DNA from: Escherichia coli | GTDB taxonomy: Bacteria > Pseudomonadota > Gammaproteobacteria > Enterobacterales > Enterobacteriaceae | NCBI RefSeq assembly: GCF_045037415.1 | Contig: NZ_CP173438.1 | DNA: 64,000 nucleotides | Reading direction: 5' to 3' (one strand) | In this document: piece by piece, positions 62,661 through 63,371 of the stretch | Numbering within the stretch: position 1 is the first letter of the stretch | How the letters are laid out: each line of letters begins with the position of its first letter | Notes under the pieces: model-generated | What the model was told of the DNA's origin: nothing | The model's database searches: none | The model's input: the letters and a program-made list of their open reading frames with translations, nothing else | Position numbers and translations under genes: made by a program

Positions 62661-63371
62661 ATGAAAAGCGATCTCACTATAAAAAATAGATATTGTACAA
62701 TTCCACAAGCGAAGTTCCGTAAATGGGATGAAATGGACGTTTTACTCTGGAAGTTAGGAAAAAATGATTCGCGTCGCCGTTCAGGAGTATATTATTTAAA
62801 TGCTTATAAAGATGCATATGTACAATATAATAGAGACAAAATAATTAAATATGCATACGCCGCTGGAATTCGTCCAGAGTTACTGGGCGGCGTGGCCTGG
62901 ATTGAGTCAGGAGGTATGCCTGAAAATTATAAGTTTCAGATATATGAAACAAAAAGAATGATCGGATTGTTAGATATGCCTGAAAATAAAACATCATTTG
63001 GCTCAATGGGTATACAAATACGAACCGCAGCGATTACTCTAGGTCTAGACCCTTCAGAATTAACTACCAGAAATCAGTTAGAGTTAGCGACATGCCTAAT
63101 GGAGGATGATTTTACCTTTCAAATTGCTGCTACTTATTTAAGAGATCTTGTTCTTTTTGATTATCCCTCTTCGGCAACACTGTATATGACGAATGAGCAG
63201 TATATTATGGCTGGTATTAGATATAATCGTGGTGTTGAACGAGATTTGGGTTTTTTTATTTGTTTAATTAATAATTTGCCTGCACGTGATACAGATGATT
63301 ATAAATTCATCTCTTATGGTATGAGGTTGTTAGAGATTAGAGAACATATCAAAAAATTGATTAATGAGTAA
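62661..63371 (+). CDS. Putative Hcp-associated effector, lysozyme-like / lytic transglycosylase-like
   Basis: 236 aa from the ATG two nt after the hcp stop; motifs in lytic-transglycosylase order: VAWIESGG, IGLLDMPENKTS, GIRYNRGVE; AT-rich. Confidence 0.55.
   Translation: MKSDLTIKNRYCTIPQAKFRKWDEMDVLLWKLGKNDSRRRSGVYYLNAYKDAYVQYNRDKIIKYAYAAGIRPELLGGVAWIESGGMPENYKFQIYETKRMIGLLDMPENKTSFGSMGIQIRTAAITLGLDPSELTTRNQLELATCLMEDDFTFQIAATYLRDLVLFDYPSSATLYMTNEQYIMAGIRYNRGVERDLGFFICLINNLPARDTDDYKFISYGMRLLEIREHIKKLINE

Follow-up and report, generated by a model that had tools for sequence, protein, structure and literature searches.

What does the 236-amino-acid (aa) protein encoded between an orphan hcp gene and ygiZ in Escherichia coli do, and what is its small downstream neighbor for? 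We addressed this question in a 64,000-nucleotide stretch of E. coli DNA (RefSeq assembly GCF_045037415.1, contig NZ_CP173438.1), which is referred to here as the window. A preliminary description of the window, made from its letters alone, had placed an open reading frame (ORF) at 62661-63371, picked out three motifs resembling those of family-1 lytic transglycosylases (LTs), and proposed a peptidoglycan-cleaving effector of a type VI secretion system (T6SS). The ORF is as described: it lies on the plus strand, with its ATG at 62661 and its stop codon ending at 63371, RefSeq has the same 711-nucleotide coding sequence ("hypothetical protein," WP_000834026.1), and the homologs share its start methionine. 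We consider it likely that this protein is an Hcp-carried T6SS cargo, which would cleave the glycan of prey peptidoglycan with Glu82 and would be neutralized by YgiZ. In our reading, it represents a new family of Tge-like effectors whose immunity protein, a membrane protein with three helices, is unusual.

Conserved residues and motifs of the effector family

A word-indexed search returned 34 homologs of the effector, all annotated as hypothetical, and every homolog with a named source comes from Enterobacterales. When a profile built from 25 homologs was run against 1.84 billion representative proteins, 372 clusters matched at E ≤ 1e-3, and 245 of these at E ≤ 1e-10. We then aligned 115 relatives, with identities down to about 25%. 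Residues E82, G85, S112, and G191 are invariant in this alignment, and K50, G84, T111, G114, Q119, R187, Y188, N189, Y219, and G220 are at least 90% conserved. E82 is the sole invariant acidic residue of the family, which fits the single-carboxylate mechanism of LTs, and Glu82 is the putative single catalytic residue.

The three strings singled out in the preliminary description are WIESGG (residues 80-85), IGLLDMPENKTS (101-112), and GIRYNRGVE (185-193). How much weight can their order bear? A loose form of the ordered pattern, E[ST]..G[LIVM][LIVM]..YN.G, occurred in 61 of 20,000 shuffles of the protein (0.3%), which makes it unusual and suggestive, if not decisive alone. Therefore, we used conservation and structure instead. 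Motif I (E82-S83) and motif III (Y188-N189-x-G191) are real, because both are conserved across the 115 relatives, and profile alignments agree. Motif II, in contrast, had been misassigned: the IGLLDM loop that follows helix 89-101 belongs to a variable-length, unconserved insertion, only the K-T-S at the end of the proposed string is conserved, and the conserved element in this region is T111-S112-x-G114-x4-Q119. The spacing between motifs had been described as longer than is typical, and the inserted helix at residues 89-101 explains this; an equivalent insertion is present in Tse3, a T6SS muramidase of Pseudomonas aeruginosa.

Direct matches to existing models are scarce across the family. 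One of 30 distant relatives matches the Pfam SLT model (PF01464) directly, at 4.6e-5. The effector has no match in PADLOC, and a phmmer search of PDB with the single sequence returned only noise (e.g., light-harvesting proteins and CpoB, at E ≥ 0.08) and no Tse3. The PHROG family phrog_11932, of unknown function, matches effector residues 9-196 at E = 5.7e-28, and a tblastn search of 50,697 phage records with the effector found no relative. Prophage-like regions or contractile-injection loci may be the source of the phrog_11932 sequences.

Predicted fold and remote homology

Structure prediction points to a lysozyme-like fold. The AlphaFold2 model built from the 115-sequence alignment has a pLDDT of 92.3 and a pTM of 0.89, with all five models between 89 and 92. 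It supersedes a first model from 25 close homologs (pLDDT 77; other models 54-63), which, though weaker, pointed to the same fold families. In fact, a Foldseek search of PDB with this early model gave only E ≥ 0.04, yet MltE took the top 13 ranks. The final model is lysozyme-like and mainly alpha-helical, as are the catalytic domains of family-1 LTs, with a helix at 72-82 ending in E82, the helix at 89-101, strands at 112-113 and 118-119, and a helix at 120-126. The catalytic domain is structurally similar to that of Tse3, at an identity of about 15%. Together with the profile comparisons below, the model indicates that the effector has the goose-lysozyme/family-1 LT fold. Remote-homology search and structure prediction had been proposed as checks, and between them they found this fold and picked out MltE and Tse3.

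As an LT template, we aligned the catalytic domains of K-12 MltE, Slt70, MltC, MltD, and MltF. Comparison of the effector family with these five domains by hhalign gave a probability of 91% (E = 1.1e-6), and a deeper family alignment raised it to 93% (E = 3e-7) over 129 columns. These comparisons pair E82 with the catalytic Glu, "TFQIAATYL" with the helix "NISMGAAYL," and RYNRG with AYNxG, which bears out the LT-like reading that had been made from the letters. The same comparison with MltE orthologs alone was weak (50%, E = 1.6e-4) because that template profile is shallow. At the level of single motifs, the invariant E82 at the end of its helix coincides with the Glu-Ser that is invariant in the five LT domains, and R187, Y188, N189, and G191 correspond to AYNxG.

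Two family profiles, A3 and A7, were run against 177,635 PDB sequences. A3 retrieved only MltE (E = 0.037) and Tse3 (0.26), and A7 retrieved Tse3 (0.017), MltE (0.26), and three weak protein A chains. The profile alignments set "AgVawiEvGG" on "AIIAIESGG" of MltE (locally "IAIESGGNP") and on "AIILAEQR" of Tse3, and in the MltE E64Q mutant chains the local match to motif I is lost. We numbered Glu64 of MltE by our own count in the translated sequence, and we take it to be the catalytic Glu from PDB entry titles ("inactive mutant E64Q"). As for the proposed kinship with LTs, the fold holds up, but among solved proteins it is the T6SS muramidase Tse3, and not a housekeeping LT, that comes closest.

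Which residues stand in for the GLMQ of LTs? The effector has no literal GLMQ. In the hidden Markov model (HMM) alignment with Tse3, "kTSfG..Q" is paired with "NTSIGLGQ," and the spacing from S to Q in the S112-Q119 hairpin is 7, as it is between S75 and Q82 of MltE (own count). The predicted hairpin and the Tse3 alignment favor S112...Q119 as the counterpart of the LT S...GLMQ, although hhalign sets GLMQ elsewhere. Toward the end of the domain, the five E. coli LT paralogs share an invariant Tyr, which is Y158 of our truncated MltE query and Y192 of full-length MltE (own count). Y219 of the effector, matched to it by eye and not by hhalign, is possibly the counterpart of this late conserved Tyr.

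Linkage to Hcp and proposed T6SS delivery

How would such a protein reach a periplasm? The preliminary description saw no signal peptide, and we agree: the highest 19-residue Kyte-Doolittle mean of the effector is 0.87, and it has no hydrophobic segment. Across 136 family representatives, a signal-like N-terminus was called in 5, by a hydropathy heuristic and not a dedicated predictor, and 2 or 3 of these look genuine on inspection.

The gene directly upstream encodes an Hcp, which matches NCBIfam TIGR03344 at E = 5.5e-59 (198.8 bits; cutoff, 58.9). The order hcp-effector-DUF2645, with hcp directly upstream, is found at 11 of 11 close Enterobacterales loci, from Chania, three Pectobacterium species, Pseudocitrobacter, Buttiauxella, Citrobacter, and Serratia (two copies in one strain). 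A separate locus search with the close alignment gave only 8 loci. The chromosomal neighborhood differs at each of the 11, and the same order also occurs on Rahnella plasmids. In the window, the gaps are just 2 nucleotides between hcp and the effector gene and 6 nucleotides between the effector gene and ygiZ, so the three genes fit an operon.

Relatives at a greater distance are linked to delivery modules as well. P0041, about 36% identical to the effector, is encoded inside a metagenomic T6SS core cluster with the order tssJ-tssA-tssB-tssC-hcp-X-DUF2645. Another relative is a fusion of PAAR and the effector domain, and its gene is followed by DUF2645. The N-terminal partners seen among 30 longer relatives are the extracellular contractile injection system (eCIS) core domain (9), OmpA (4), PAAR (2), Rhs, Mu-F, and Ntox3; one eCIS-type relative adjoins a contractile injection system tube gene, with no DUF2645 there. 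The synteny with hcp, the position of P0041 in a T6SS core cluster, and the PAAR fusion followed by DUF2645 support the reading of the protein as a T6SS effector, and with it the delivery route that had been proposed.

Is there a machine to fire it? In CFT073 (NZ_CP051263.1), the one genome checked, the cassette and a complete T6SS cluster are both present. The cluster lies at the metV tRNA genes and comprises tssB, C, K, and L, hcp, tssH, vgrG, PAAR, an ImcF-related gene (TssM), and tssA, F, G, J, and E. A blastn search with hcp in "distant" mode found no paralogs.

Some of these loci carry further genes of interest. The CFT073 T6SS cluster (L033, 18844-45113; chromosome, 3233844-3260113) stands beside three tRNA-Met genes, next to mltA, and it encodes a Tle3 phospholipase effector, a Tli3 immunity gene, and a PAAR gene. 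In Chania multitudinisentens, where the cassette is flanked by integrase and transposase remnants, a Pesticin-domain gene followed by an LprI-domain gene (L002, 10287-11314) lies about 3.5 kb away; the two are probably another pair of a lysozyme-type toxin and a lysozyme-inhibitor immunity protein. The 553-kb Rahnella aceris plasmid pPlas2 carries a second orphan tssD, a gene for a DUF2778 protein, and a small ORF (L031, 10763-12080) about 4 kb from hcp-X-DUF2645, which places two Hcp-linked effector modules side by side.

YgiZ as the presumed immunity protein

The gene downstream of the effector is named "ygiZ: DUF2645 family protein" in RefSeq, and it is by this name that we assign the window protein to the family; the PF10840 (DUF2645) matches were precomputed on homologs and neighbors. 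DUF2645 stands directly 3' of the effector gene at every close locus, just as it follows the PAAR-fused relative. At the close loci, identity to the window proteins is 55-76% for Hcp, 54-73% for the effector, and 27-64% for DUF2645. DUF2645 diverges faster than the effector and is the fastest evolving of the three, which is typical of immunity genes.

The distribution in E. coli tells a similar story. The effector is found in 1,261 of 5,426 complete E. coli genomes (23%), at 95-100% identity, and its ORF is intact and full length in 1,260 of the 1,261 carriers. One carrier strain, SYNB1934, we believe to be a Nissle derivative. All E. coli copies are chromosomal other than that of H16, a 353-kb record annotated as an E. 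coli plasmid (NZ_MG591698.1, 60214-60921), in which the effector is 97% identical. In contrast, ygiZ is present in 4,598 of the 5,426 genomes (85%). K-12 is among them, and its YgiZ is identical to the window copy at 101 of 110 positions (92%). That ygiZ is so much more frequent than the effector, and is kept by K-12 without the toxin, is what one would expect of an orphan immunity gene.

What kind of protein is YgiZ? Its sequence contains three hydrophobic segments and leaves only about 25 residues exposed. From the positive-inside rule, we infer a cytoplasmic N-terminus, with loop 1 and the C-terminus in the periplasm. An alignment of 16 DUF2645 proteins from effector loci shows the loop-1 motif (N/G)(K/E)YDWM...C(S)(I/L)P and an invariant C-terminal Cys, and a periplasmic disulfide between the loop-1 Cys and the C-terminal Cys is possible. 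A homolog search with YgiZ returned close relatives only. In all, gene order, divergence, and distribution suggest that YgiZ is probably the antidote to the effector.

Variant DUF2645 genes were also seen. In Buttiauxella gaviniae (L019, 4752-5041), the DUF2645 match is split over two frames beside an intact effector gene, which points to a frameshift in the immunity gene or an error in the sequence. Many Shigella/E. coli DUF2645 clusters (P0352, P0362, and others) are about 164 aa long and match just about 57% of YgiZ. These seem to be ygiZ alleles that were disrupted or fused, as would be expected if an orphan immunity gene were decaying in some lineages.

Proposed mechanism and alternatives

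We propose that the effector, made without a signal peptide, would be carried on or inside its cognate orphan Hcp, the product of the adjacent upstream gene, and that a T6SS encoded elsewhere in the genome would fire it into neighboring Gram-negative cells. In the prey periplasm, it would cut the backbone of N-acetylmuramic acid (MurNAc) and N-acetylglucosamine (GlcNAc), with Glu82 as a single acid/base catalyst. The chemistry could be either lytic transglycosylation or hydrolysis of the kind ascribed to the muramidase Tse3, the closest solved relative. YgiZ, with three helices in the inner membrane, would protect the producer as well as most toxin-less E. coli, and its conserved, probably disulfide-braced periplasmic loop would block the enzyme.

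Several observations weigh against this proposal. In sequence, the effector resembles solved enzymes only marginally (E = 0.017-0.04). The effector has no match in Pfam even at E ≤ 10, the SLT model included, and none in NCBIfam. The counterpart of the LT GLMQ is ambiguous, as hhalign disagrees with the Tse3 HMM alignment and sets GLMQ on effector residues 95-98, off the hairpin. Because the orphan Hcp and its counterpart in the CFT073 T6SS cluster share no more than about 32% identity (over 107 aa), its compatibility with that machine is uncertain. Finally, the presumed immunity protein YgiZ is a polytopic inner-membrane protein. The known Tge and Tae immunity proteins and the known lysozyme inhibitors are soluble or lipid-anchored in the periplasm, and small polytopic immunity proteins usually accompany membrane-targeting toxins.

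This last point keeps alive a different target for the same enzyme. The lysozyme-like enzyme might work at the inner membrane's outer face, for instance with lipid II or nascent glycan strands that are not yet cross-linked as its substrate, and this would explain an integral inner-membrane immunity protein. YgiZ, with its three hydrophobic segments, has only a short loop and the C-terminal Cys as conserved exposed parts, and the fold and catalytic Glu are compatible with any MurNAc-GlcNAc glycosidase. However, the effector has neither a hydrophobic segment nor any feature of membrane association, and its closest structural relatives act on polymeric peptidoglycan. A membrane-anchored YgiZ loop could equally well inhibit a sacculus-degrading enzyme; short protruding loops suffice for known lysozyme inhibitors of the Ivy type. 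We regard a membrane-surface target as unlikely. It is tempting to go further and see in YgiZ a widespread orphan T6SS immunity protein, a new kind of lysozyme/LT inhibitor in which a polytopic membrane protein neutralizes a peptidoglycan glycosidase through a short disulfide-braced periplasmic loop, with the corollary that the target of the effector family would be lipid II or nascent strands at the surface of the inner membrane and not the mature sacculus. We offer this combined idea tentatively and consider it rather doubtful.

Could the protein instead be inactive? A repurposed lysozyme-fold protein, such as a binding module or an Hcp adaptor, or a decaying remnant of an acquired islet would account for an AT-rich islet that has been lost from most E. 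coli, and for a sequence with no canonical GLMQ and no Pfam match. A remnant would hardly be expected to keep a full-length ORF at 95-100% identity in all carriers but one, nor would an inactive protein be expected to keep its invariant Glu and other active-site-type residues in 115 relatives down to about 25% identity, in a three-gene order maintained over at least seven genera. This makes an inactive or decaying protein very improbable compared with an active T6SS effector. Least credible of all is a specialized LT that opens the producer's own peptidoglycan for T6SS assembly and is no toxin, like the LTs of type III and type IV secretion systems and flagella, given that the protein has no signal peptide for reaching its own periplasm, has its gene in a mobile hcp cassette that, in E. 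coli, lies far away from the T6SS core, occurs in 23% of genomes against the 85% that keep the downstream gene, has relatives fused to PAAR, eCIS-core, and Rhs delivery modules, and is paired with a fast-evolving partner of the kind typical of toxin-immunity pairs.

Genomic setting of the islet

The features discussed above are collected in Table 1. The G+C content of the islet is 28-37%, versus about 50% in the flanks. The window is 100% identical to E. coli strain 4/1-1 over 2.7 kb. Homology to K-12-type sequence stops near 62088, about 90 nucleotides 5' of hcp; in place of hcp and the effector gene, K-12 has about 159 nucleotides of unrelated sequence (L029, 989-1147), followed by ygiZ. No hcp or effector remnant was detected in this replacement sequence. 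There is also a third allele (L030), in strains that lack hcp, the effector gene, and ygiZ altogether.

Table 1. Positions in the window of the islet, its genes, and the conserved elements of the effector
Feature	Position	Strand	Remark
AT-rich three-gene islet (hcp, effector, ygiZ)	62089..63710	+	Between mdaB and qseC
Orphan hcp (TssD tube protein, 159 aa)	62179..62658	+	Presumed effector carrier
Lysozyme-like (Tge/LT-like) effector, 236 aa	62661..63371	+	
Motif I, W80-I-E82-S-G-G85; putative catalytic Glu82 codon at 62904-62906	62898..62915	+	E82 and G85 invariant
Inserted helix, residues 89-101, between Glu82 and hairpin	62925..62963	+	Predicted helix
Conserved hairpin, T111-S112-F-G114-S-M-G-I-Q119	62991..63017	+	S112 invariant; T111, G114, and Q119 at least 90% conserved
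Motif III, R187-Y188-N189-R-G191	63219..63233	+	G191 invariant; R187, Y188, and N189 at least 90% conserved
Conserved Y219-G220, C-terminal helix	63315..63320	+	Both at least 90% conserved
ygiZ (DUF2645, 110 aa, three hydrophobic segments)	63378..63710	+	Presumed immunity protein

The ORF list also contains overlapping ORFs of 53-122 aa inside ygiZ (63503-63894, plus strand) and inside the effector gene (62845-63006, minus strand), which are best treated as chance ORFs in AT-rich DNA. Elsewhere in the window, adjoining ygiN, positions 53765-60957 encode a TonB-dependent receptor (53765-55906, minus strand), an ABC ATPase, two FecCD-type permeases, a substrate-binding protein, and a MurR/RpiR regulator. 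This region looks like an accessory iron-siderophore uptake island of extraintestinal pathogenic E. coli (ExPEC)-type strains, and its layout is not known from K-12.

Significance

If our reading is right, the T6SS effectors of ExPEC and commensal E. coli, CFT073 included, comprise one more family, of peptidoglycan glycosidases. The K-12 gene ygiZ, whose function is unknown, would gain a candidate role as an orphan immunity gene, and its retention by 85% of E. coli would imply long-standing selection from toxin-bearing neighbors. There is a practical side to this: the chromosomal ygiZ, 92% identical, could mask standard toxicity assays in K-12 or BL21. In many bacteria, the effector domain is also found as the cargo part of PAAR, Rhs, and extracellular contractile-injection proteins. 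Neither Pfam nor NCBIfam has a model for this widespread domain, so annotating it once would reach hundreds of protein clusters. Action at the inner-membrane surface, if true, would be a new target site for T6SS glycosidases.

Comparison with known systems

Tse3 (Tge1), the muramidase of the P. aeruginosa H1-T6SS (PDB 4luq, 3wa5, 4m5f, and 4n80), is the closest solved relative of the effector, but the two differ in several ways. Tse3 is a 408-aa protein with a large N-terminal domain (about 220 residues) that has no counterpart in the effector, and the match runs from about residue 226 onward. The best profile E value, 0.017, covers only about 110 residues and is too weak for family membership. 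The partners are also different: Tsi3 is a periplasmic protein, whereas YgiZ is an unrelated DUF2645 membrane protein with three helices and is not an immunity protein of the Tsi3 type.

Compared with family-1 LTs (GH23, PF01464), the effector has an extra helix after motif I and no literal GLMQ. Housekeeping LTs are exported; the effector, in contrast, has neither a signal peptide nor a lipobox, and its gene is part of a toxin-immunity cassette and is not a housekeeping gene.

In layout, the cassette is most like other orphan hcp-effector-immunity modules, e.g., hcp with DUF2778/Tlde1-type effectors or the hcp islands of Pantoea and Erwinia, which likewise combine a dedicated hcp, a small signal-less effector, and an immunity gene outside the T6SS core. 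However, their effector and immunity families differ from the effector and DUF2645 described here. Lysozyme-like effectors and orphan immunity genes are also known from hcp islands of Pantoea, but there the immunity proteins that come after the lysozyme-like effectors are of the LprI type or others with a signal peptide, and not DUF2645 (PMC9796082).

Several published candidates proved on comparison to be different systems, namely hcp2B-xmtU/xmtV of avian pathogenic E. coli (PMC5874247), a SleB-like T6SS effector (PMC11148199), and the Pantoea VgrG-glucosaminidase with its hcp island (PMC9796082). A literature search, with most subscription journals outside its reach, found no report linking ygiZ, DUF2645/PF10840, or the effector to T6SS, and searches for Tge4 and for mdaB with hcp found nothing relevant. 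Glycosidases of peptidoglycan are already known among T6SS effectors (Tge1-3). The effector family described here is a remote relative of one of them, Tse3, and comes with a membrane-embedded immunity family.

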